Shown: positions 9,917 to 38,812 of the stretch, one piece after another
Numbering within the stretch: position 1 is the first letter of the stretch
How the letters are laid out: every line of letters starts with the position of its first letter
Source: Acutalibacteraceae bacterium
GTDB taxonomy: Bacteria > Bacillota > Clostridia > Oscillospirales > Acutalibacteraceae
Assembly (NCBI GenBank): GCA_045637925.1
Contig: JAZUAL010000035.1
Span: 25,390 to 89,389 of the forward strand
Length of the DNA: 64,000 nucleotides
Direction: 5' to 3'
The notes under the pieces: generated by a model
The model's input: the letters and a program-made list of their open reading frames with translations, nothing else
The model's database searches: none
What the model was told of the DNA's origin: nothing
Position numbers and translations under genes: made by a program

Positions 9917-10072
9917 AAAAATTGCGTACTATAGTGTACGAATGAACCGATTTACTGCGGCGCACAGAAAAAACTACTTAATGCTGCTCGGTTCCCCGCC
10001 TGACATGGTTCGTAGCGTTCTGTCGCACAGGACCCGCCCATTCGCACACTACGGTACGCAAAGACTGATTTC
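9917..10072 (-). ncRNA. ffs: signal recognition particle RNA, small 4.5S-like form with an extended helix 5; ends approximate
   Basis: The reverse strand contains CGAACCATGTCAGGCGGGGAACCGAGCAGCATTAAGTAG. This matches the conserved domain IV of B. subtilis scRNA (GAACCAUGUCAGGUCCGGAAGGAAGCAGCAUUAAGUG). The termini pair (GCGTACCGTAGTGTGCGAATG with CATTCGTACACTATAGTACGC) and are followed by a TTTTT run. The position upstream of dnaX is the same as in Bacillus. A TTGTAA-17-TAAAAT promoter (with upstream TG) lies at about 10079-10107 on the reverse strand. Confidence 0.85.
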
Positions 10073-28986: not shown

Positions 28987-29298
28987 ATGAAAAATAAAAC
29001 TTTCGTTGTAATTGGCTTATTTACTATCATCTTAGTATTTTCGTCATTATTGACAAGCTATGTGGACAGCGCCAGAGTAAGAAATGCTGTAGAGCCCAAG
29101 TGCGTTGTTAAAATTGTATCTGAGGATGGAAGCCGAGTTACCTATTGGGGATTGGGCTATAAGGTTGTGAGATATCCAAGTGTTAGCCCAAATGAACCGT
29201 ATAAGAATAATCGTGGTGTTAAATATGGTAGTTGGTTTATGAAATATGAATTACCGAATAATGAGTTTAGCAAAACAAATCAAAGCTATGGTAGTTGA
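28987..29298 (+). CDS. hypothetical small exported or membrane-anchored protein
   Basis: 103 aa with an N-terminal signal/anchor MKNKTFVVIGLFTIILVFSSLL. GGAG SD upstream. No family recognised. Confidence 0.55.
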   Translation: MKNKTFVVIGLFTIILVFSSLLTSYVDSARVRNAVEPKCVVKIVSEDGSRVTYWGLGYKVVRYPSVSPNEPYKNNRGVKYGSWFMKYELPNNEFSKTNQSYGS

Positions 29299-29328
29299 TG
29301 CGGATTTGATGATTTTTGAAATAAAATG

Positions 29329-29357
29329 TTGACAAATTGATTTAAAAGGCGTATTAT
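29329..29357 (+). promoter_or_regulatory. promoter of the aromatic amino-acid operon leader
   Basis: TTGACA (29329-29334), 17 nt, TATTAT (29352-29357). Confidence 0.6.
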
Positions 29358-29391
29358 AAATGAAATAAGTTTTTTAAAAGGGGTGGACAGA

Positions 29392-29463
29392 ATGTTCGTA
29401 AAATCATATTATCGATTTTATTATTTTAATGAAGCGGACTGTCTGTACACCTGTGAAGCTTAA
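29392..29463 (+). CDS. candidate leader peptide, 23 aa, Tyr/Phe-rich (MFVKSYYRFYYFNEADCLYTCEA)
   Basis: The ATG at 29392 is preceded by GGGGTGG. The ORF has 5 Tyr and 3 Phe codons, six of them in an eight-codon run, and ends at TAA 29461-29463. It lies between the promoter and a terminator hairpin upstream of a Phe/Tyr biosynthesis operon. It is below the ORF-track size cutoff. Confidence 0.55.
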   Translation: MFVKSYYRFYYFNEADCLYTCEA

Positions 29464-29506
29464 ATGCTTTTCAAATTTTACAGTCAGCCTGCTTTTCGTC
29501 GTGCTT

Positions 29507-29540
29507 TTTGCATTTCGAAATGCAGGTTTTTATATTTTTA
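29507..29540 (+). terminator. attenuator terminator hairpin in the aromatic operon leader
   Basis: The palindrome TGCATTTCGAAATGCA (29509-29524) can be extended by two U.G pairs. It is followed by GGTTTTTATATTTTT, about 25 nt before the SD of the first operon gene. Confidence 0.5.
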
Positions 29541-29566
29541 ATACATACTGCAAAGGAGAAGTTTAA

Positions 29567-30751
29567 ATGATATCTGAAAAAATGATGAGTCTTGGTAAAA
29601 AACGCTCGGTAATACGCGAGATTTTCGAATACGGTAATAAAAGGCGGGCTGAAATAGGCGCGGAGAATGTTTATGATTTCAGCCTTGGTAACCCAAGTAT
29701 TCCTGCGCCCGATTTTGTTAACGAAACAATGAGAAAACTCGTAACTGAAAAGGATAGTGTAGCTTTGCACGGATACACCTCAGCTCAAGGTGCGCTACCC
29801 GTTAGAAAGGCTATAAGTGACCATATAAACGGTCGTTTTAATATAAACGCCTCTCCTGACCTTTTATATATGACCTGCGGTGCGGCGGCTTCTCTCACAA
29901 TCACCCTTAATGCGCTAGTAAACGAGGGTGATGAGGTAATAGTTTTAGCACCCTTTTTCCCCGAATACACAGTATTTGTTGAAAAAGCAGGCGCTGCTGT
30001 AAGAATTGTAAACTGTCGCGAAAGCGATTTCCAGATTGATTTTGAGGCGATTGGAAATGCTATAACAAAAAACACAAAGGCAATAATTGTAAATTCACCA
30101 AATAATCCAAGCGGTGTTGTGTTTAACGAGGAAAGCATTAAGGGTTTGGCTGATTTGTTAAATAAAAAATCAAAGGAATTTGGAATAAAAATTTATATAA
30201 TTGCCGACGAGCCATATAGAGAGCTGGTATACGGCGACATTACAGTGCCATATATCCCCGAATACTATAACAATACGGTGGTTTGCTATTCCTACAGTAA
30301 ATCATTGTCTCTTCCCGGTGAGCGTATTGGTTATATTTTTGTGTCTCCAAGGGTTGAAAATTGCGATGATGTATATGCGGCTGTTTGCGGTGCGGGCAGA
30401 GCATTAGGTTTTGTTTGTGCGCCAAGCCTCTTGCAATATACTGTGGCTGAATGTGTGGGCCTTACAGGTGATATTTCGGCATATGAGAAAAACCGCAATT
30501 TACTTTATAATGCGCTTACCGAGTACGGTTATAATGCCGCTAAGCCTGACGGCGCATTTTATCTTTTCATTAAATCGCCCCAAAAGGATGCCGCCGCTTT
30601 CTGCGAAAAGGCTAAAAAGTATGATTTACTTTTGGTTCCGGGTGAGGACTTTGGCTGTCCTGAATATGTTAGAATTAGCTATTGTGTAAGCTATGAAATG
30701 ATTGAAAAATCCCTACCTTACTTTAAAAAACTGATTGAAGAATATATATAA
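29567..30751 (+). CDS. class I/II pyridoxal-phosphate aminotransferase (aspartate/aromatic aminotransferase-like)
   Basis: The 394-aa ORF shows LGNPSIPAP, NSPNNPSGVVF, YSYSKSLSLPGERIGY (PLP lysine motif SxSK) and RISY. AAGGAG SD. Confidence 0.85.
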   Translation: MISEKMMSLGKKRSVIREIFEYGNKRRAEIGAENVYDFSLGNPSIPAPDFVNETMRKLVTEKDSVALHGYTSAQGALPVRKAISDHINGRFNINASPDLLYMTCGAAASLTITLNALVNEGDEVIVLAPFFPEYTVFVEKAGAAVRIVNCRESDFQIDFEAIGNAITKNTKAIIVNSPNNPSGVVFNEESIKGLADLLNKKSKEFGIKIYIIADEPYRELVYGDITVPYIPEYYNNTVVCYSYSKSLSLPGERIGYIFVSPRVENCDDVYAAVCGAGRALGFVCAPSLLQYTVAECVGLTGDISAYEKNRNLLYNALTEYGYNAAKPDGAFYLFIKSPQKDAAAFCEKAKKYDLLLVPGEDFGCPEYVRISYCVSYEMIEKSLPYFKKLIEEYI

Positions 30752-30771
30752 TTTTGAAAAGAGTAAAGCTT

Positions 30772-31860
30772 ATGACTGAACTAGAAAAGGCAAGACAGAT
30801 TATAAATGATGTCGACAAAGAGATGGCAGAACTTTTCCTTAAAAGAATGGATGCAGTTCGCACAGTTGCTGAATATAAAAAGCTTCACGGTATTCCGATT
30901 ACTGATGTTAACCGTGAGGCTGAGGTTATTAAACGCAACTCAGATTACATAACCAATGAGGAATATAAATCATATTACATAAACTTTTTACAGCATACTA
31001 TGGATATTTCCAAAAGCTATCAGCACCGTCTTTTAGAGGGAATGCGTGTAGCTTTTAGCGGTGTGGAGGGCGCTTTTGCAAATCTTGCTGCTAATAAGGT
31101 TTTTCCCGATGCTGTAGCTGTGCCATATCCCGATTTTAAATCGGCATATAATTCAGTTGTGTGCGGAGAGTGTGACTGTGTAATACTACCCATTGAAAAC
31201 AGCTATAACGGTGATGTTGGGCAGGTAATGGATTTAAGCTTTTTCGGTCCGCTTTTTATAAACGGTATTTATGATATCGGTGTGGTACAAAATCTGTTAG
31301 CGGTAAAAGGAACTTCTATTGACAAAATAAAGCAGGTTATAAGTCATCCACAGGCGCTGGGACAGTGCGCGGGCTTTATAAAAGAGCATGGCTTTGAGAC
31401 TATTGAAACGGTAAATACCGCAGTAGCCGCAAAACAGGTTGCTGAAATGGAAAAAGAGTATATTGCCGCTATTGCAAGCGAGGATGCTGCTGAAAAATAC
31501 GGTCTGCAAGTGCTAAGAACACATATCAACGAAAGCAATAATAATACAACCCGTTTTGCAGTGTTTTCGCGTAGTGCTAAGCTTGCCACACCCGATGATA
31601 AGCATTTTATTATGCTGTTTACCGTTACTAACGAGGCAGGCTCACTCTCAAAAGCAATTTCAATAATAGGGGATAACGGATTTAATTTAAAGGCTTTAAA
31701 AAGCCGCCCCACAAAAGAGCTTATCTGGAGTTATTATTTTTATGCCGAGGGTGAAGGTAATATAAATACTCCGGAAGGTCAAAAAATGTTGAATGAGCTA
31801 AAAGAAAAATGCAGTGAAATTAAGGTAATAGCAAGCTTTGAAAAGGAAATTAGTTTGTAG
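30772..31860 (+). CDS. pheA: bifunctional chorismate mutase / prephenate dehydratase (P-protein)
   Basis: The domains are an N-terminal AroQ-type CM (LEKARQIINDVDKEMAELFLKRMDAVRTVAEYK), PDT (VAFSGVEGAFANLAA...PIENSYNGDV...NTTRFAVF) and a C-terminal ACT (GSLSKAISIIGDNGFNLKALKSRP). The ORF track offers an alternative TTG start at 30754. Confidence 0.88.
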   Translation: MTELEKARQIINDVDKEMAELFLKRMDAVRTVAEYKKLHGIPITDVNREAEVIKRNSDYITNEEYKSYYINFLQHTMDISKSYQHRLLEGMRVAFSGVEGAFANLAANKVFPDAVAVPYPDFKSAYNSVVCGECDCVILPIENSYNGDVGQVMDLSFFGPLFINGIYDIGVVQNLLAVKGTSIDKIKQVISHPQALGQCAGFIKEHGFETIETVNTAVAAKQVAEMEKEYIAAIASEDAAEKYGLQVLRTHINESNNNTTRFAVFSRSAKLATPDDKHFIMLFTVTNEAGSLSKAISIIGDNGFNLKALKSRPTKELIWSYYFYAEGEGNINTPEGQKMLNELKEKCSEIKVIASFEKEISL

Positions 31861-31869
31861 GTGAGTGTT

Positions 31870-32871
31870 ATGATAATACCCGTAAAAACTGCTACAAGTG
31901 AATATGATATAGTTTTAGAACGCGGCGCTTTAGAAAAACTTGATGAATATTTGAATTTGAAGCGTAAGGTACTTATTGTTACAGATAGCGGTGTGCCTAA
32001 GAGTTATTCTTTATTAGCTTCTAAGCAATGTGATGAAGCATATATTGTGACTATACCAGAAGGCGAAGCTTCGAAAAGCTTTGATAATTTTAAGCTGTTG
32101 CTAGCGCGAATGGTAGAGCTAGGGTTTACTCGCACTGACTGTGTGATGGCTGTAGGTGGCGGTGTTGTAGGCGACCTTGCGGGTTTTGTGGCTGCGTCCT
32201 TTATGCGTGGAGTTGATTTTTATAACATTCCAACAACCCTACTTTCTCAGGTGGACTCCTCGGTTGGCGGAAAGGTTGCTATCGATTTTGAGGGTTATAA
32301 AAATATTGTAGGCGCTTTTTATCCGCCGAAGGCAGTGATTATAGATTTTAACACCCTAAAAACACTAGAACCCAGACAAATTGCTAACGGACTTGCTGAG
32401 TCGGTTAAAATGGCAATGACCTCTGATAAGGAACTGTTTGAGCTTTTCGAAACTGGGGAAATAATGCCTAATATTGATAAAATTATTGAGGCTTCACTTA
32501 AAATAAAGCGTTATGTGGTTGAAGAGGATGAAAAGGAAAAAGGGCTTAGAAAAGTTCTAAATTTCGGTCATACATTAGCTCACGCTATTGAAAGCGAAAA
32601 GGAAATGCAAAACCTTTATCATGGCGAATGTGTTGCCCTTGGTATGATACCAATGTGTGCACAATCTATAAAACCTAGGCTTATAAAGGTTCTGCAAAAA
32701 ATTGGGCTTCCTACAAGTGCTGAATATGAAGTGAATAAGGTTATAGAAGCGATGCGTCATGATAAAAAAGTGTCGGGCGATAAAATAACCGTGGTTTATG
32801 TAGAGGAAATCGGTGATTTTAAAATGAAAGAAATGCCATTTTATGACCTGGCTGAGAAATTTAAGGGGTGA
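31870..32871 (+). CDS. aroB: 3-dehydroquinate synthase
   Basis: GGGVVGDLAGFVAASFMRGVDFYNIPTTLLSQVDSSVGGKVAIDF and NFGHTLAHAIE are present. The start is taken at ATG 31870 (AGGTGA SD) rather than the track GTG at 31861. Confidence 0.9.
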   Translation: MIIPVKTATSEYDIVLERGALEKLDEYLNLKRKVLIVTDSGVPKSYSLLASKQCDEAYIVTIPEGEASKSFDNFKLLLARMVELGFTRTDCVMAVGGGVVGDLAGFVAASFMRGVDFYNIPTTLLSQVDSSVGGKVAIDFEGYKNIVGAFYPPKAVIIDFNTLKTLEPRQIANGLAESVKMAMTSDKELFELFETGEIMPNIDKIIEASLKIKRYVVEEDEKEKGLRKVLNFGHTLAHAIESEKEMQNLYHGECVALGMIPMCAQSIKPRLIKVLQKIGLPTSAEYEVNKVIEAMRHDKKVSGDKITVVYVEEIGDFKMKEMPFYDLAEKFKG

Positions 32872-32877
32872 AATACT

Positions 32878-33966
32878 ATGAAAAATACTTTCGGTCAAAA
32901 TGTTGTGACTACTCTATTTGGCGAGAGTCACGGTGTGGCAATAGGGGCTGTTATAGACGGTTTAGCGCCGGGGATTGCGGTTGATGAGGAATTTATTAAC
33001 GCTCAACTAGGTCTTAGAAGACCTGTCGGCAGTATTTCAACACCTCGCGTAGAAAAGGATGAATTTCGGATTTTAAGCGGTGTTTTTGAGGGTAAAACCA
33101 CAGGCACACCCGTTTGCATTGTAATACCTAACGAGGATAAAAAGCCTAAGGACTATAGTGACATTCGTTCTAAAGCCCGTCCAGGACATGCCGATTTTAC
33201 CGCTTATGAGAAGTATCATGGATTTGAGGATTATCGCGGTGGCGGACATTTTAGTGGAAGAATAACTGCAGGCATCGTAGCTGTGGGTGCAATAGCAATT
33301 TCTGCGCTAAAAAACAAAGGAATTTATATTGGCACACATATTTCCAGATGCGGTGGTATAGATGACGCTGAGTTTTCTGAATTAAAGAGTGAGATTGAAG
33401 CTTTGAATAAAAAACAGTTTGCAGTGATAGATGATAATAAAGGCGAGCTGATGATGGATGCGATTACTAAAGCTAAAAATGATGGTGACAGCGTTGGTGG
33501 TATACTCGAAACCGTGGTGTTAGGTTTGCCCTCGGGCGTTGGTGAGCCATGGTTTGACAGTATGGAAAGCTTGTTATCGCATGCTCTTTTCAGCATTCCC
33601 GCTGTAAAAGGTGTTGAGTTTGGAGAGGGCTTTAAGTTATCGGATATGCTTGGTAGCGAGGCTAATGACTGTTTTTGTTTAGACGGTAATATGATTAAAA
33701 CCGAAACTAACAACAATGGCGGTATAAATGGCGGTATTGCTAATGGAATGCCTATAATTTTCCGCACAGCTGTTAAGCCCACTCCAACCATAAGCAAACA
33801 ACAGCAAACCGTTGATTTTATAAATCGTGAAAACACTGTGATTACAGCAGGCGGCAGACATGACCCTTGCATAGTACACCGTGCGCGTGTTGTAGTTGAC
33901 AGTATGGTAGCACTTGTACTTTGCGATTTACTAACTGGCAGATTTGGAACGGATTGGTTGGCTTAA
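32878..33966 (+). CDS. aroC: chorismate synthase
   Basis: 362 aa, with TLFGESHGVAIGAVIDGLAPG, RPGHADFT, GGGHFSGR and GGRHDPC. Confidence 0.95.
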   Translation: MKNTFGQNVVTTLFGESHGVAIGAVIDGLAPGIAVDEEFINAQLGLRRPVGSISTPRVEKDEFRILSGVFEGKTTGTPVCIVIPNEDKKPKDYSDIRSKARPGHADFTAYEKYHGFEDYRGGGHFSGRITAGIVAVGAIAISALKNKGIYIGTHISRCGGIDDAEFSELKSEIEALNKKQFAVIDDNKGELMMDAITKAKNDGDSVGGILETVVLGLPSGVGEPWFDSMESLLSHALFSIPAVKGVEFGEGFKLSDMLGSEANDCFCLDGNMIKTETNNNGGINGGIANGMPIIFRTAVKPTPTISKQQQTVDFINRENTVITAGGRHDPCIVHRARVVVDSMVALVLCDLLTGRFGTDWLA

Positions 33967-33967
33967 A

Positions 33968-35221
33968 ATGGAATATGGACTAATAGGTGAAAAGTTGAGT
34001 CACAGTTTTTCAAAGGTTGTGCATTCTCAGATTGCAGATTATAAATATGAATTAAAGGAAATAGCAAGAGGAGAAATTGAGGCTTTTTTCAAAAACCCTC
34101 AATTTAAGGCTATTAATGTGACAATTCCTTATAAGCAGGATGTTATACCTTTCTTAGATGTTATTGACGAAACAGCAGAAAAAATAGGCGCTGTTAATAC
34201 AGTGGTTAATAAGTGTGGCAAGCTTTACGGTTATAATACCGATTTTTCTGGACTTAAAGCTTTGATAGAGCGTGCTAACATTGAGTTATTATCAAAAAAA
34301 GTATTAATTTTGGGTAGCGGCGCCACCTCAAAAACTGCACTTGCTGTGGCTAAAACTTTGGGGGCAAAAGAGATTTACAGCATATCACGCAGCGGCGGAA
34401 AAGGTCTTTTAACTTATGAAGAAGCCAAGAGCATACATAACGATGCAGATGTAATTATTAACACAACCCCTTGCGGAATGTATCCAAATAATGACGGGAT
34501 TGCGGTGGATATTACTAAATTCAAAAAGCTTTCGGGAGTTGTCGATGTGGTATATAATCCACTTAATACCGAGCTTGTTTTAAAGGCAAGTGAGCTTGGG
34601 ATAAAAGCAATAGGCGGACTTTATATGCTCGTAGCACAGGGAGTTTTTGCGGCAGAAAAATTTATGGATAAGGAAATTAATAAATCGCAAATTGACCGTA
34701 TATATAATAAGCTTTTAAAAGAAAAGCAAAATCTGGTGCTTATCGGTATGCCGTCAAGCGGAAAAACAACATTAGGTAAAATGATTGCTGATGAGCTTGC
34801 ATTAGATTTTCTTGATAGTGATGAGGAAATTGTGAAGGCAGAGGGTAGAACAATCCGCGAAATATTTGAAGCAGACGGTGAAAAGCATTTCAGAACCCTT
34901 GAAACCAAAGTGATTAGCGAGTTTTCAAAAAGGCAGTCTTCGGTTATTTCTACAGGCGGCGGTGCGGTTTTAGATAAAAATAACATTTCAAAACTTCGTC
35001 AAAACGGTTTTATTGTTTTTATTGACCGCCCTATAGAGCTTCTCCTTTCTACTGACGACCGACCCCTTTCAAGCAATAAAGAAGAACTTATAAAACGATA
35101 TAATGAAAGATACGGAATTTACTGTAACTGTGCAGATTATACTGTGAAAAATGATTGTAAAATAGAGACTGTTATAAAGAAAATTAAAGAGGCGTTTTTA
35201 AATGAAAATTTTGGTGCTTAA
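33968..35221 (+). CDS. aroE-aroK: fused shikimate dehydrogenase (AroE) and shikimate kinase (AroK)
   Basis: The N-terminal 250 or so residues show YGLIGEKLSHSFSKVVH, NVTIPYK, NTV, YNTD and GSGATSK (AroE). The C-terminal 165 or so residues show the P-loop LIGMPSSGKTTLGKMIADEL, DSD and GGGAV (AroK). The start is taken at ATG 33968, right after the aroC stop. Confidence 0.88.
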   Translation: MEYGLIGEKLSHSFSKVVHSQIADYKYELKEIARGEIEAFFKNPQFKAINVTIPYKQDVIPFLDVIDETAEKIGAVNTVVNKCGKLYGYNTDFSGLKALIERANIELLSKKVLILGSGATSKTALAVAKTLGAKEIYSISRSGGKGLLTYEEAKSIHNDADVIINTTPCGMYPNNDGIAVDITKFKKLSGVVDVVYNPLNTELVLKASELGIKAIGGLYMLVAQGVFAAEKFMDKEINKSQIDRIYNKLLKEKQNLVLIGMPSSGKTTLGKMIADELALDFLDSDEEIVKAEGRTIREIFEADGEKHFRTLETKVISEFSKRQSSVISTGGGAVLDKNNISKLRQNGFIVFIDRPIELLLSTDDRPLSSNKEELIKRYNERYGIYCNCADYTVKNDCKIETVIKKIKEAFLNENFGA

Positions 35222-35636
35222 CGGACCTAATATTAATATGCTAGGTATCAGAGAACCCGATATTTACGGAGCTGATAATTATAAAAAACTGTGCTTTAAT
35301 ATTAAAGAATATTCAAAGAAAAAAGGCTTTAAAGTAAAGCTTTATCAATCAAACCACGAGGGTGATTTGGTAGACAAAATTCAAGCCGCATACAATGTTT
35401 TTGATGGTATCGTTATTAATCCCGCTGCACATACTCACACAAGTATAGCACTGCTTGATGCCATAAAGGCTGTGGGTATACCTACGGTTGAGGTGCATAT
35501 TTCAGATGTGAGCGCACGCGAGGATTTTAGACAAATAAGCTATGTGAGAGAGGCCTGTGTTAATACCATCAGCGGTCATGGAATTAAGGGCTATATAGAG
35601 GCAATAGATTTTTTGCTAGAGAATTACGGTGAGTAA
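35202..35636 (+). CDS. aroQ: type II 3-dehydroquinate dehydratase
   Basis: 144 aa, with [42 protein letters not shown] and VEVHISD. Confidence 0.95.
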   Translation: [144 protein letters not shown]

Positions 35637-35639
35637 ATA

Positions 35640-36845
35640 ATGACGGTTAAATTTGAAAAAAGTATCGCTTCCGGAAGAGTGAAATCGCCACCGTCTAAAA
35701 GTATGGCGCATAGATATCTAATTTGCGGTGCACTGTCTGGCGGTAGCGTTATAAAAGGAATAGACTATTCTGAGGATATCATGGCAACCCTTAAGTGTCT
35801 CAAAGCCTTGGGTGCTGATATCGAATTAAATAAAAATACTGTTAACATCGGCGGAATTGATTTTGAAAAGGGAATAAGTGGTTCGAAGCTTTTTGCTAAC
35901 GAAAGCGGTAGTACGCTTAGGTTTTTAATTCCTTTATGCCTTATCTTTGAAAAACAAATTACCATTTGCGGTAGCGAAAGACTTTTTAGCCGTTCACTTT
36001 CGGTTTATGAGGAGATTTGCAAGTCTCAAGGACTTGAATTTATAAAAACTGCTAACAGTGTAACCATAAAAGGCAAACTGCAAAGTGGCAAATATTTAGT
36101 CCGCGGTGATATTTCAAGTCAGTTTATAAGTGGGCTTATGTTTGCATTGTCAAAGCTTCAAGATGATAGCTTAATAGAAATTGAGGGCACTATAGAAAGT
36201 GGCTCTTACCTTAATCTTACGATTAAAGCTTTGGCAGATTTTGGGGTGAGAATTAGCCGAATTGACGAGCGTACTATATATGTTAAAGGAAATCAAACCT
36301 ATAAAAAACGTGAAATATCGGTTGATGGAGATTACTCTAACTCTGCGTTTTTAGAAGCTTTTAATCTTTTAGGTGGCAATGTGATGGTAAAAGGCTTGAG
36401 TGCAAAAAGTGTTCAGGGAGATATGGTTTACCGCGATATATTTAAAAAGCTAAGTGCCGGTTGTCCCACATTGGATATGTCTGACTGTCCAGACCTGGCA
36501 CCGATAATTATGGCACTGGCTGCCGCTAAAAACGGTGCCGTGCTTACAGGCACAAATAGGCTTAAAATTAAAGAAAGTGACCGTGGTGAAGCAATGAAGG
36601 CTGAGCTTGAAAAAATGGGCGCTAAGGTTTTGGTAGAGGATAATAAAATCACGGTTAAAAAGGCAAAATTGCATTTGCCTGAAAGACCTGTCTTTAGTCA
36701 CAACGACCACCGCATAGTTATGGCGATGTCGGTGCTTTTAAGTGTCACGGGCGGAGAAATTATAGGAGCTGAAGCGGTGGCAAAGAGTTATCCTAAATTT
36801 TTTGATGACATTTTATCTTTGGGTGTGAATGTTAGGGAGATATAA
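35640..36845 (+). CDS. aroA: 3-phosphoshikimate 1-carboxyvinyltransferase (EPSP synthase)
   Basis: 401 aa, with PPSKSMAHRYLI, GSTLRFL, DISSQFISGLMFA, ESDR and DHRIVMA. Confidence 0.93.
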   Translation: MTVKFEKSIASGRVKSPPSKSMAHRYLICGALSGGSVIKGIDYSEDIMATLKCLKALGADIELNKNTVNIGGIDFEKGISGSKLFANESGSTLRFLIPLCLIFEKQITICGSERLFSRSLSVYEEICKSQGLEFIKTANSVTIKGKLQSGKYLVRGDISSQFISGLMFALSKLQDDSLIEIEGTIESGSYLNLTIKALADFGVRISRIDERTIYVKGNQTYKKREISVDGDYSNSAFLEAFNLLGGNVMVKGLSAKSVQGDMVYRDIFKKLSAGCPTLDMSDCPDLAPIIMALAAAKNGAVLTGTNRLKIKESDRGEAMKAELEKMGAKVLVEDNKITVKKAKLHLPERPVFSHNDHRIVMAMSVLLSVTGGEIIGAEAVAKSYPKFFDDILSLGVNVREI

Positions 36846-37709
36846 ATGAGACTTATTAAAAATATAAATATTTTAATTGTGGGCTTAGGTCTTTTGGGTG
36901 GTAGCTATGCTAAAGGCCTTAAAAAATTAGGCTTTACGGTCAATGCTATTACTAAGGACAGATTTTCTATTGATTATGCAATGGAAAACGGTATCATAGA
37001 TTTTGGCACAACCGATGTAAATCCCGAGCTTGTGGGCAACGCTGATATAGTTGTGTTTGCACTTTACCCTCATGTTTTCATAGAGTGGATAAAGGTAAAT
37101 CAAAGGTATTTTAAGCGCGGTGCTGTTATCACTGATGTTACGGGTGTTAAGGGCTGTGTTGTGCGTGAAATCCAGTCGATTTTAAGAGACGATGTTGAAT
37201 ATATTGCTGCACACCCAATGGCAGGTAAAGAGGTGTCGGGTGTTGTAAACAGTGATGATGCTATTTTTAAGGGTGCTAACTATATTGTGGTGCCTACAGA
37301 GAAAAACACACCAGATGCTATTGAGCTTTGTAGAAACTTAGGTGAAATTTTAGGTTTCAAACAGGTAGCAGAGCTTAGTGTTGAAGAACATGACCGAATG
37401 ATAGCATTTTTGTCACAGCTTACTCACTGTATTGCGGTTTCGCTTATGTGCTGTAATCAAACCGAGGGACTCGAAAGTTATACCGGTGACTCTTTCCGTG
37501 ACTTAACTCGAATTGCTCGTATTAACGATGAAATGTGGAGTGAGCTTTTTTTAAGCAATAAAAAACCGCTTCTGGAGGAAATGGAGCGTTTTAGACACTC
37601 TTTTGATGAGTTATATGAAAAGATTAAAAATGACGACCGTGACGGTATGCGCGAAATGATGCGCACCTCAACCGAACGTCGTAAGCTATTTGACAAAAGG
37701 GATAAATGA
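36846..37709 (+). CDS. tyrA: prephenate dehydrogenase
   Basis: 287 aa, with Rossmann IVGLGLLGGSYAKGL, DVTGVK, AHPMAG and HDRMIAFLSQLTH. Confidence 0.9.
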   Translation: MRLIKNINILIVGLGLLGGSYAKGLKKLGFTVNAITKDRFSIDYAMENGIIDFGTTDVNPELVGNADIVVFALYPHVFIEWIKVNQRYFKRGAVITDVTGVKGCVVREIQSILRDDVEYIAAHPMAGKEVSGVVNSDDAIFKGANYIVVPTEKNTPDAIELCRNLGEILGFKQVAELSVEEHDRMIAFLSQLTHCIAVSLMCCNQTEGLESYTGDSFRDLTRIARINDEMWSELFLSNKKPLLEEMERFRHSFDELYEKIKNDDRDGMREMMRTSTERRKLFDKRDK

Positions 37710-37721
37710 TAGGTGAATGTT

Positions 37722-38753
37722 ATGAATTTAGTGTTTAAAAGGAAATTACCTATACCAAAGCAGATAAAAACGCGCTATCCCTTAACACCTGAACTAGAAA
37801 AGCAAAGGGACGAGCGCGCAAAAGAGCTTGCAAATATTTTTTCGGGCAAAAGTGATAAGTTTGTACTTATAATAGGTCCTTGTTCGGCTGATAACAAGGA
37901 AGCGGTGCTAGAATACATTGGCAGACTTCGTACAGTTCAGGATGAGGTGAAGGATAAAATCTTTATCGTTCCCCGCATTTACACAAACAAACCTCGTACA
38001 TCAGGTGACGGCTATAAAGGAATGCTTCATCAACCCGACCCTGATGTTAATCCCGACATGTTAAAGGGAATAGTGGCTATAAGAGATTTGCATATGGCGG
38101 CTTTAAAAGATTACGGTTTTACCTGTGCAGATGAAATGCTTTATCCCGATAATTACCGTTATCTTTCCGATATTTTAGCTTATGTAGCGGTTGGCGCACG
38201 TTCGGTAGAAAATCAACAGCATCGACTTACTGCAAGCGGTATTGAAGTGCCTGTTGGTATGAAAAATCCAACAAGCGGTGACCTTTCAATTATGATGAAT
38301 TCTATCACTGCCGCACAGCATAAGCATACTTTTATTTACAGAGGTTGGGAAGTAACAAGTGCAGGAAACCCTTATGCACACGCTATTATGCGCGGTTATA
38401 TTGATTACGCAGGAAAAAATGTTTCGAATTATCATTATGAAGATCTTGCAAAGCTTTCTGAAATTTACGCTGAGACAGGACTTTTGAACCCTTCTGCAAT
38501 AGTTGATACAAACCATGCGAATTCGGGCAAAAAATATCTTGAGCAGATAAGAATTGCCAAGGATGTTATATATAGCTGCAACCATAATAAAGATATACGA
38601 AATCTCGTAAAGGGTCTTATGATAGAAAGCTATATTGAAGATGGCGCACAGAAGATTGGTGAACATATATACGGCAAGTCGATTACCGACCCATGTCTTG
38701 GTTGGGAGAAGAGTAAAGAACTTATTTATACTATTGCAGATACATTAAAGTGA
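37722..38753 (+). CDS. 3-deoxy-7-phosphoheptulonate (DAHP) synthase, class I alpha (AroF/G/H-like)
   Basis: It aligns along its length with E. coli AroG motifs: IIGPCS, PRIYTNKPRT, GARSVENQQHR, PVGMKNPTSG, DTNHANS and YGKSITDPCLGWE. The start is taken at ATG 37722 (AGGTGA SD) rather than the track GTG at 37713. Confidence 0.88.
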   Translation: MNLVFKRKLPIPKQIKTRYPLTPELEKQRDERAKELANIFSGKSDKFVLIIGPCSADNKEAVLEYIGRLRTVQDEVKDKIFIVPRIYTNKPRTSGDGYKGMLHQPDPDVNPDMLKGIVAIRDLHMAALKDYGFTCADEMLYPDNYRYLSDILAYVAVGARSVENQQHRLTASGIEVPVGMKNPTSGDLSIMMNSITAAQHKHTFIYRGWEVTSAGNPYAHAIMRGYIDYAGKNVSNYHYEDLAKLSEIYAETGLLNPSAIVDTNHANSGKKYLEQIRIAKDVIYSCNHNKDIRNLVKGLMIESYIEDGAQKIGEHIYGKSITDPCLGWEKSKELIYTIADTLK

Positions 38754-38765
38754 TTTGTAAATTAG

Positions 38766-38812
38766 AAATAGGGATTGTTTGTTTTTTGAGCAATCTCTAT
38801 TTTTGTTTTTTT
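38766..38812 (+). terminator. intrinsic terminator ending the aromatic operon
   Basis: A 12-bp stem: AAATAGGGATTG (38766-38777) pairs with CAATCTCTATTT (38791-38802), with one G.U pair. The tail is TTGTTTTTTT. Confidence 0.75.

Follow-up and report, generated by a model that had tools for sequence, protein, structure and literature searches.

The aromatic operon, its leader and their conservation

The DNA window analysed here, a 64,000-nt stretch of contig JAZUAL010000035.1 from an Acutalibacteraceae bacterium, a member of a family within the Clostridia/Eubacteriales, carries a nine-gene operon for aromatic amino-acid synthesis. It is preceded by a short leader, which is the subject of this work. 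Pfam assignments and open reading frame (ORF) coordinates give the gene order as class I/II aminotransferase, chorismate mutase-prephenate dehydratase-ACT (pheA), aroB, aroC, an aroE-aroK fusion, aroQ, aroA, tyrA and DAHP synthase. The genes overlap or abut, and no trp genes are found among the nine. An earlier reading of the letters alone (the original prediction) had proposed that the leader is a ribosome-mediated attenuator responding to Tyr and Phe. Comparison with related sequences supports that proposal: the short leader ORF is conserved, and the predicted RNA structures are mutually exclusive and covary. The elements of the locus are listed below, with the strand in brackets.

29329..29357 (+): sigma-A-type promoter, TTGACA at 29329-29334, 17-nt spacer, TATTAT at 29352-29357; 11/12 consensus match
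29380..29386 (+): Shine-Dalgarno sequence (SD) of the leader ORF, GGGGTGG, 5 nt ahead of the ATG at 29392; read directly
29381..29391 (+): segment 1, 5' strand of the helix P1, pairing with 29442-29452; part of the minimum free energy (MFE) fold
29392..29463 (+): leader ORF MFVKSYYRFYYFNEADCLYTCEA, ATG at 29392, 23 codons and a TAA stop at 29461-29463; read directly, conserved
29407..29427 (+): regulatory codon run Y-Y-R-F-Y-Y-F (TAT TAT CGA TTT TAT TAT TTT), the proposed stall site
29434..29446 (+): segment 2, antiterminator 5' strand, GCGGACUGUCUGU, within leader codons 15-19; placed by covariation
29480..29492 (+): segment 3, antiterminator 3' strand, ACAGUCAGCCUGC, whose final 6 nt double as the 5' arm at the base of the terminator
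29487..29527 (+): intrinsic terminator hairpin (the attenuator), GCCUGCUUUUCGUCGUGCUUUUUGCAUUUCGAAAUGCAGGU, 41 nt, -20.9 kcal/mol
29528..29539 (+): U-tract of the terminator, UUUUAUAUUUUU; read directly, conserved in all leaders
29553..29558 (+): SD of the aminotransferase gene, AAGGAG, 8 nt before its ATG at 29567; read directly
29567..38753 (+): nine-gene operon, probably under the control of the leader, from Pfam assignments and ORF coordinates

Direct reading of positions 29100-29800 ranked the promoter, at 11/12, as the top promoter-like site of the region, and transcription would start near 29364, about 7 nt past the -10 box. The leader peptide contains five Tyr, three Phe and no Trp, with six aromatic residues in the eight-residue stretch S-Y-Y-R-F-Y-Y-F. 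Further downstream lies the palindrome TGCATTTCGAAATGCA at 29509-29524, followed by GGTTTTTATATTTTT. The promoter, the GGGGTGG, the 23-codon ORF with its Tyr/Phe counts, and the palindrome with its U-rich tract were all found at the coordinates given by the original prediction.

With the aminotransferase protein as query, we scanned a single genome from each species and retrieved 80 loci (63-91% protein identity) from Acutalibacteraceae, Oscillospiraceae and metagenome-assembled genomes (MAGs) assigned to 'Clostridia', mostly from animal and human gut. An SD-preceded, Phe/Tyr-rich ORF of 17-27 codons, ending 82-115 nt before the aminotransferase ATG, was present in 33 of the 80. These ORFs start with ATG, GTG or TTG in the same register and come from 33 species of Acutalibacteraceae/Oscillospirales besides that of the window, making 34 leaders in total; the peptides MFVKSYFRFYYFTNADCLYTCEA, MFGFKFFYFYFINADCLCTKKA, MSISRYFFYYFYFFKKTDCLYPVKNAF, MAGFYFYYFTSADCLNVD and MAKFNAFYFYYYFNNADLNTCKKPYMA are examples. 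An aromatic-rich, SD-led short ORF with drifting flanks is, then, kept in 33 orthologous leaders, which speaks for the original prediction. Within all 34 leaders, a promoter matching at least 10/12 consensus positions stands at a constant distance, its spacer almost always 17 nt, and an SD-like sequence precedes the start codon.

The leader was found in 33 of the 46 loci in which the aminotransferase gene is followed by pheA-aroB-aroC, and in none of the 33 stand-alone aminotransferase loci; it tracks the operon, not the aminotransferase gene. Two further partial leaders were inspected by eye. In one related locus (L002; L numbers denote the related loci), the end of the contig cuts the leader inside the terminator (1-83), which is still visible, and in L033 (688-730) a degenerate 13-codon ORF, VPFSFNYEKKFSK, is accompanied by a terminator. 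The distribution shows that the leader undergoes evolutionary turnover within the leader-bearing clade.

Two related loci, L011 and L017, retain the promoter and the operon and have no leader upstream of 3001. The leader is likewise absent from a distant operon clade whose pheA is about 50% identical (L051, L059, L060, L062, L063, L067, L070 and L075).

The region has a G+C content of 30-33%, which makes TTT and TAT triplets cheap, so any test against chance must be comparative. We therefore scanned both strands of 589 kb for SD-preceded ORFs of 12-40 codons with at least five aromatic residues in eight. There were 62 matches, 34 at the single syntenic site and 28 elsewhere (in 1.18 Mb of strand, about one per 42 kb), giving an expectation of about 0.005 matches per site against the 34 found at the syntenic one.

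The composition of the runs was examined codon by codon. Across 31 distinct leader ORFs (666 codons), Phe makes up 19.7%, Tyr 16.2% and Trp none; together Phe and Tyr reach 36%, compared with 8.1% in the operon's own proteins. Codon position 1 of the runs is T, position 2 is T or A and position 3 is T or C, and synonymous codons interchange (TTT/TTC 112/19, TAT/TAC 64/44). Aromatic codons account for 77% of frame 0 in the runs; in the two remaining frames their shares are 28% and 20%. Of 146 occurrences of A, 97 are at codon position 2, and of 61 occurrences of C, 38 are at position 3. The runs appear in 28 distinct Phe/Tyr orders and lengths (FYYF, FYFYYF, YFFYYFYF, FYFYYYF and others), always differing by whole codons, and outside them the peptide drifts freely in length and sequence. 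This pattern fits selection on codon identity, unlike that expected of a protein- or ligand-binding RNA motif.

Midway through the run (cga ttt tat tac ttt), 21 of the 34 leaders keep a CGA Arg codon (29413-29415 in the window). The operon itself uses CGA sparingly, for 8 of its 121 Arg codons, and the conserved mid-run CGA could be a deliberately slow codon or a local RNA feature.

Terminator, antiterminator and ribosome position

The leader RNA has an MFE of -56.2 kcal/mol (z = -4.9 against dinucleotide shuffles). Its terminator pairs as GCCUGC-UUUCG-GUGC...GCAU-CGAAA-GCAGGU, and each of the 34 leaders has an equivalent long GC-based hairpin (-15 to -29 kcal/mol) with a U-tract after it. A standard terminator scanner missed it, its loop and stem rules excluding interrupted long hairpins, and a custom search was used instead. 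At the base of the hairpin, CG pairs are compensated by UA pairs and vice versa. RNAalifold applied to the whole leader returned solely this basal helix, as expected given that alternative folds compete. The original prediction had taken the 16-nt palindrome at 29509-29524 for the terminator. That hairpin reaches only -3.7 to -5.3 kcal/mol and is not conserved, and we rejected it as a weak local alternative subsumed by the 41-nt hairpin at 29487-29527.

Segment 3 can also pair with segment 2, inside the leader ORF, and thereby occupy the 5' arm of the terminator. This antiterminator hairpin (29434-29492) is predicted at -20.3 kcal/mol. In the alignment of 33 sequences, the helix 29434-29446 : 29480-29492 covaries, with 78% of cells paired and 10 of 13 pairs changed on both sides; 0 of 500 shuffles equalled it on any of five measures, including two that are robust to phylogeny, and control helices slid out of register were 25-47% paired. 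The clearest compensations are those of L040 and L047, where GCGGACC.UGA pairs with UCAGGGUCCGC and GGUCCGC is the terminator arm. Both segment 2 and the spacer GGACAG show nucleotide-level conservation. Of the two competing helices drawn by hand in the original prediction, 29434-29442 : 29480-29488 brought together the right segments in a register 4 nt off, in which it was equalled by 238 of 500 shuffles and did not covary; the other, 29486-29492 : 29522-29528, had been meant to use up the 3' arm of the terminator and is actually the terminator's base.

The third helix, P1 (29381-29391 : 29442-29452), joins the SD region to a strand that the 3' end of segment 2 overlaps. Its domain is predicted at -22.0 kcal/mol, so that P1, antiterminator and terminator are nearly isoenergetic (-22.0, -20.3 and -20.9 kcal/mol), and the three are mutually exclusive in the window. 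Mutually exclusive terminator and antiterminator folds that covary are, then, available to this RNA, in keeping with what folding was expected to reveal under the original prediction. We tentatively regard P1 as an anti-antiterminator that also hides the leader SD. An alternative register of P1, pairing GGACAG 29385-29390 with CUGUCU 29439-29444, was rejected, as it did not covary.

The position of the ribosome was modelled by letting it cover the mRNA to 12 nt past the first base of the A-site codon, forbidding pairs that span it, and folding the nascent transcript, up to just before the terminator 3' arm, for each A-site codon. A simulation by simple masking was discarded as misleading, since it permitted pairs spanning the ribosome. 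In the no-spanning model, 188 of 258 aromatic codons, when in the A site, leave the antiterminator free to form; in nearly every species this holds until about the penultimate one. Formation is blocked once the ribosome has passed the run, and just 4 of 34 leaders form the antiterminator while the ribosome is at the stop codon. The modelled boundary between on and off would thus coincide with the 3' end of the Phe/Tyr run in nearly all species. The spacing from the run to segment 2 is conserved at 2-3 codons.

In a classical attenuator, such as pheL-pheA, trpL or hisL, a promoter is followed by a short ORF rich in the regulatory amino acid, by alternative hairpins and by a terminator. The leader described here has an SD-led short ORF between promoter and first gene, clustered codons for the end products, a terminator, and a mutually exclusive antiterminator within reach of the ribosome. 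We conclude, with a probability of about 85%, that it is a classical ribosome-mediated (leader-peptide) transcription attenuator of the nine-gene operon for the common aromatic pathway and the Phe/Tyr branches. Comparison of sequences demonstrates the parts, their conservation, the constraint on codons, the covariation of terminator and antiterminator, and the geometry.

In the proposed mechanism, a ribosome would load on the strong SD and translate the 23-codon leader. When Phe-tRNA or Tyr-tRNA is scarce, it would stall within 29407-29427 and leave segment 2 free; segment 3, once transcribed, would then pair with segment 2, the 5' arm of the terminator would be occupied and RNA polymerase would read through into the operon. 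When both charged tRNAs are plentiful, the ribosome would pass over segment 2 to the stop codon, leaving segment 3 free to pair with segment 4 in the 41-nt terminator (29487-29527), and transcription would stop in the U-tract at about 29530-29540. In untranslated RNA, P1 may lock both segment 2 and the leader SD. We infer the stalling, the response to tRNA charging and the premature 3' ends from this arrangement.

Several points weigh against this interpretation. MFE folds of the ribosome-free nascent transcript (29364-29519 in the window, and all leaders) give the antiterminator in 29 of 34 cases, so that untranslated transcripts may, according to the folding model, read through, unlike in the super-attenuation of E. 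coli trp; the full-length free leader RNA prefers the terminator in about 30 of 34. Under the assumed footprint, stalling at the final aromatic codon, or at the final two, would already occlude the 5' end of segment 2, and only part of the run would be productive. Covariation gives the anti-antiterminator role of P1 moderate support (70.7% of cells paired, matched on score by 1 of 500 shuffles, and not significant on the robust pair-count measures). The leaders are phylogenetically related, and p-values from codon counts overstate their independence. The source organism is known from metagenome-type sequence only. Finally, Johnson and colleagues are said to have found, in 2020, that transcription and translation are poorly coupled in Bacillus subtilis; if this holds in the present lineage, the mechanism demands pausing of RNA polymerase in the leader.

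Other features of the operon and its neighbourhood

Beyond the leader, a terminator of its own closes the operon:

38763..38805 (+): terminator hairpin (-18.2 kcal/mol) and U-tract (T-run) at the end of the operon

The aroE-aroK fusion (33944-35221) is a 425-aa ORF with an N-terminal shikimate dehydrogenase domain and a shikimate kinase and, as listed, starts 23 nt before aroC ends. Directly upstream of the leader, a 103-aa ORF on the forward strand (28987-29298) stops just 30 nt short of the -35 box, and no terminator intervenes; read-through transcription into the leader is therefore possible. This ORF has no Pfam match, and no orthologue of it was found upstream of the leader in the 80 loci. 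A window-wide scan for short ORFs with an amino-acid run and a terminator returned no other convincing leader-like element.

Many relatives carry a palindrome, CTTTAAA-N2-GTTAAAG, about 15-25 nt ahead of the -35 box in the aro-operon promoter, often with an extra TTTTAACAC/TTTAAA half-site 8 nt earlier. It was seen in about 16 leader-bearing loci and also in the two leader-less ones, L011 (at about 2909-2924) and L017 (at about 2899-2914); its position is about 250-280 nt upstream of the aminotransferase ATG in L018, L019, L021, L023, L024, L026, L027, L030 and L036. It is missing from 29290-29328 of the window and from the closest relatives (L001, L003-L005). This palindrome resembles the operator of a DNA-binding regulator; such a regulator would add a second layer of control. 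At the end of one related contig (L046, 6199-6253) we also detected the 5' fragment of a group II intron (RF02001, 50.4 bits).

Known systems, alternative explanations and significance

Searches against Rfam 15 (4,227 models) assigned the leader to no family at the gathering threshold and returned no leader family at E<=10 in 29200-29700. No match to the T-box (RF00230) was found in the window, and neither T-box nor riboswitch was found in 20 leader-less related loci; the check for another regulatory class was thus clear, as the original prediction implied. The small signal recognition particle RNA (RF00169, 65.3 bits, 9941-10039, reverse strand) is the sole gathering-level match in the 64-kb window. 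One Bacillus small RNA, ncr952 (RF02453), aligned to 29379-29530, but its 20.9 bits fall below the family's gathering threshold (100), and membership was rejected; it is the sole match below E=0.1 and the sole bacterial one at E<=10, the rest being eukaryotic noise. What it shares with the leader is a GGGGUGG-ACA-AUG start region and a terminal hairpin with a U-tract, which are generic SD and terminator features. Its consensus begins with GGGGGUGGGAACAUG and ends in a terminator, which suggests that ncr952 may itself be a small-ORF leader. Seven representative leader peptides matched 0 NCBIfam and Pfam families at E<=10, and we found no description of a Phe/Tyr leader for a clostridial aro operon in the open-access literature. 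Neither Rfam 15 nor NCBIfam nor Pfam contains the Phe/Tyr leader family: the kind of mechanism is known and the sequence family is uncatalogued.

The leader resembles those of E. coli (pheL-pheA, which is Phe_leader in Rfam, and trpL and hisL) in its overlapping segments, which pair as 2:3 and 3:4 and, more tentatively, as 1:2, and pheL likewise controls pheA. It differs in that its codons mix Phe and Tyr and its host belongs to the Gram-positive Clostridia. Moreover, segment 1 corresponds to the SD and spacer instead of the regulatory codons, and the ORF contains segment 2, which ends before the stop codon.

Among Firmicutes, Weinberg and colleagues reportedly described a Lactococcus leu/phe leader motif in 2010. 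Ribosome-dependent attenuation has also been reported for antibiotic-responsive genes of B. subtilis. Amino-acid leader peptides were long held to be confined to Proteobacteria and Actinobacteria, until His leaders were noted upstream of hisS and hisZ in bacilli (PMC2965389); His attenuators are now known in the B. cereus group, Peptostreptococcaceae and Erysipelotrichales (PMC9413887), and a Leu-rich attenuator peptide of S. aureus ilv-leu has been validated experimentally (PMC5794164). The original prediction was right that T-boxes, TRAP or riboswitches are typical of such operons in this phylum, and it overstated the novelty of a leader peptide there, given these documented cases (PMC2965389, PMC9413887, PMC5794164). 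The Firmicute His, Leu and leu/phe leaders are similar to ours as amino-acid-sensing peptides in a T-box-dominated phylum, with similar comparative evidence. They differ in specificity, operon and lineage; an aro/phe/tyr supra-operon is under the control of none of them, and the accounts cited here mention no mixed aromatic run.

The closest functional parallel in codon content is aroR (Phe-Tyr-Phe), upstream of aroF in C. glutamicum, which according to PMC11802643, citing Neshat et al. 2014, responds in experiments to Phe limitation and not to Tyr. Its characterisation, as given there, makes the statement that no mixed Tyr/Phe leader peptide has been characterised too strong. As described there, aroR is also a ribosome-mediated attenuator with mixed Phe/Tyr regulatory codons ahead of aromatic-pathway genes. 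It differs in belonging to the Actinobacteria and in having three regulatory codons compared with 5-8 in the window family, and it controls an operon that contains aroF; the window operon starts with the aminotransferase gene and has DAHP synthase last. Compared in this way, by description, aroR and the Acutalibacteraceae leader are likely of independent origin.

The alternative that departs least from the attenuator keeps its whole architecture and has it sense effectively one amino acid, probably Phe, with the Tyr codons contributing little. The rise of aroR read-through on Phe limitation, with no effect of Tyr availability (PMC11802643), is a precedent for it; Phe codons also outnumber Tyr codons overall (131 versus 108), and some runs hold a lone Tyr (FFYF in L018, L037 and L039). 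We nevertheless consider it unlikely, because at least one Tyr codon occurs in the run of 34 of 34 leaders, most having 3-5, because pheA, tyrA and the aminotransferase shared by both branches are all in the operon, and because TAT/TAC stays in frame across 28 arrangements, which suggests selection for Tyr codons beyond U-richness. A different kind of explanation has a trans-acting factor (an RNA-binding protein, a tRNA or a small ligand) bind the conserved U/A-rich and GGACUGUCUG segments, leaving the ORF incidental or auxiliary. Firmicutes typically control amino-acid operons through T-boxes, TRAP-like proteins or riboswitches (PMC2965389, PMC9413887), the nucleotides of segment 2 and the GGACAG spacer are conserved, and the palindrome at many orthologous promoters suggests an extra protein regulator. 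Set against this are the lack of any T-box or other Rfam family match to the leader, even at E<=10, and a run that varies by whole codons and in Phe/Tyr order, in frame with the conserved SD and start, which is unexpected for a factor's site. Antiterminator occlusion sets in where the run ends, and pairing explains the conservation of segment 2, so that we find this explanation quite improbable.

Leader peptides acting in trans, and effects of re-initiation, have reportedly been proposed in other systems. Here, the C-terminal (A/T)DCL(Y/C) is conserved as a peptide, as it might be if the ORF encoded a functional micropeptide or boosted downstream translation or mRNA stability in place of sensing. 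However, the conserved C-terminal codons are segment 2, which covaries with segment 3, and the peptide beyond the run drifts freely. Between the stop codon and the next gene lie about 100 nt with a full terminator, which makes re-initiation implausible, and no peptide family was matched. This reading therefore seems to us very improbable indeed. A chance ORF in AT-rich intergenic DNA beside an ordinary hairpin has in its favour the 30-33% G+C, with which TTT and TAT are common, and the 28 comparable ORFs elsewhere. It leaves 34 occurrences at one syntenic site, where about 0.005 are expected, and the joint conservation of promoter, SD, frame, terminator and antiterminator to coincidence; on these comparative sequence data, it is already refuted.

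A more specific version of the attenuator reading, which we put forward tentatively and at somewhat under even odds, is that of a dual-input (Phe or Tyr) uncatalogued family, widespread in gut Acutalibacteraceae/Oscillospirales, that would switch the nine-gene aromatic supra-operon through three near-isoenergetic structures, with the leader SD region as segment 1. The attenuator reveals no new regulatory principle. It adds a well-supported amino-acid leader peptide to the Clostridia, a class expected to rely on T-boxes or protein regulators and in which leader peptides of this kind are rare, and it is one of very few mixed Phe/Tyr sensors. The 33-species alignment is ready for a new Rfam or NCBIfam family, which would improve the annotation of gut MAGs, the 23-codon gene being below the cut-offs of gene callers. 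The leader also offers a natural test case of whether the coordination of ribosome and RNA polymerase in Clostridia is adequate for classical attenuation. The phylum is thought to favour ribosome-independent riboregulators; if the dual-input switch works as drawn, it would imply tight timing between ribosome and RNA polymerase in a lineage of Clostridia.

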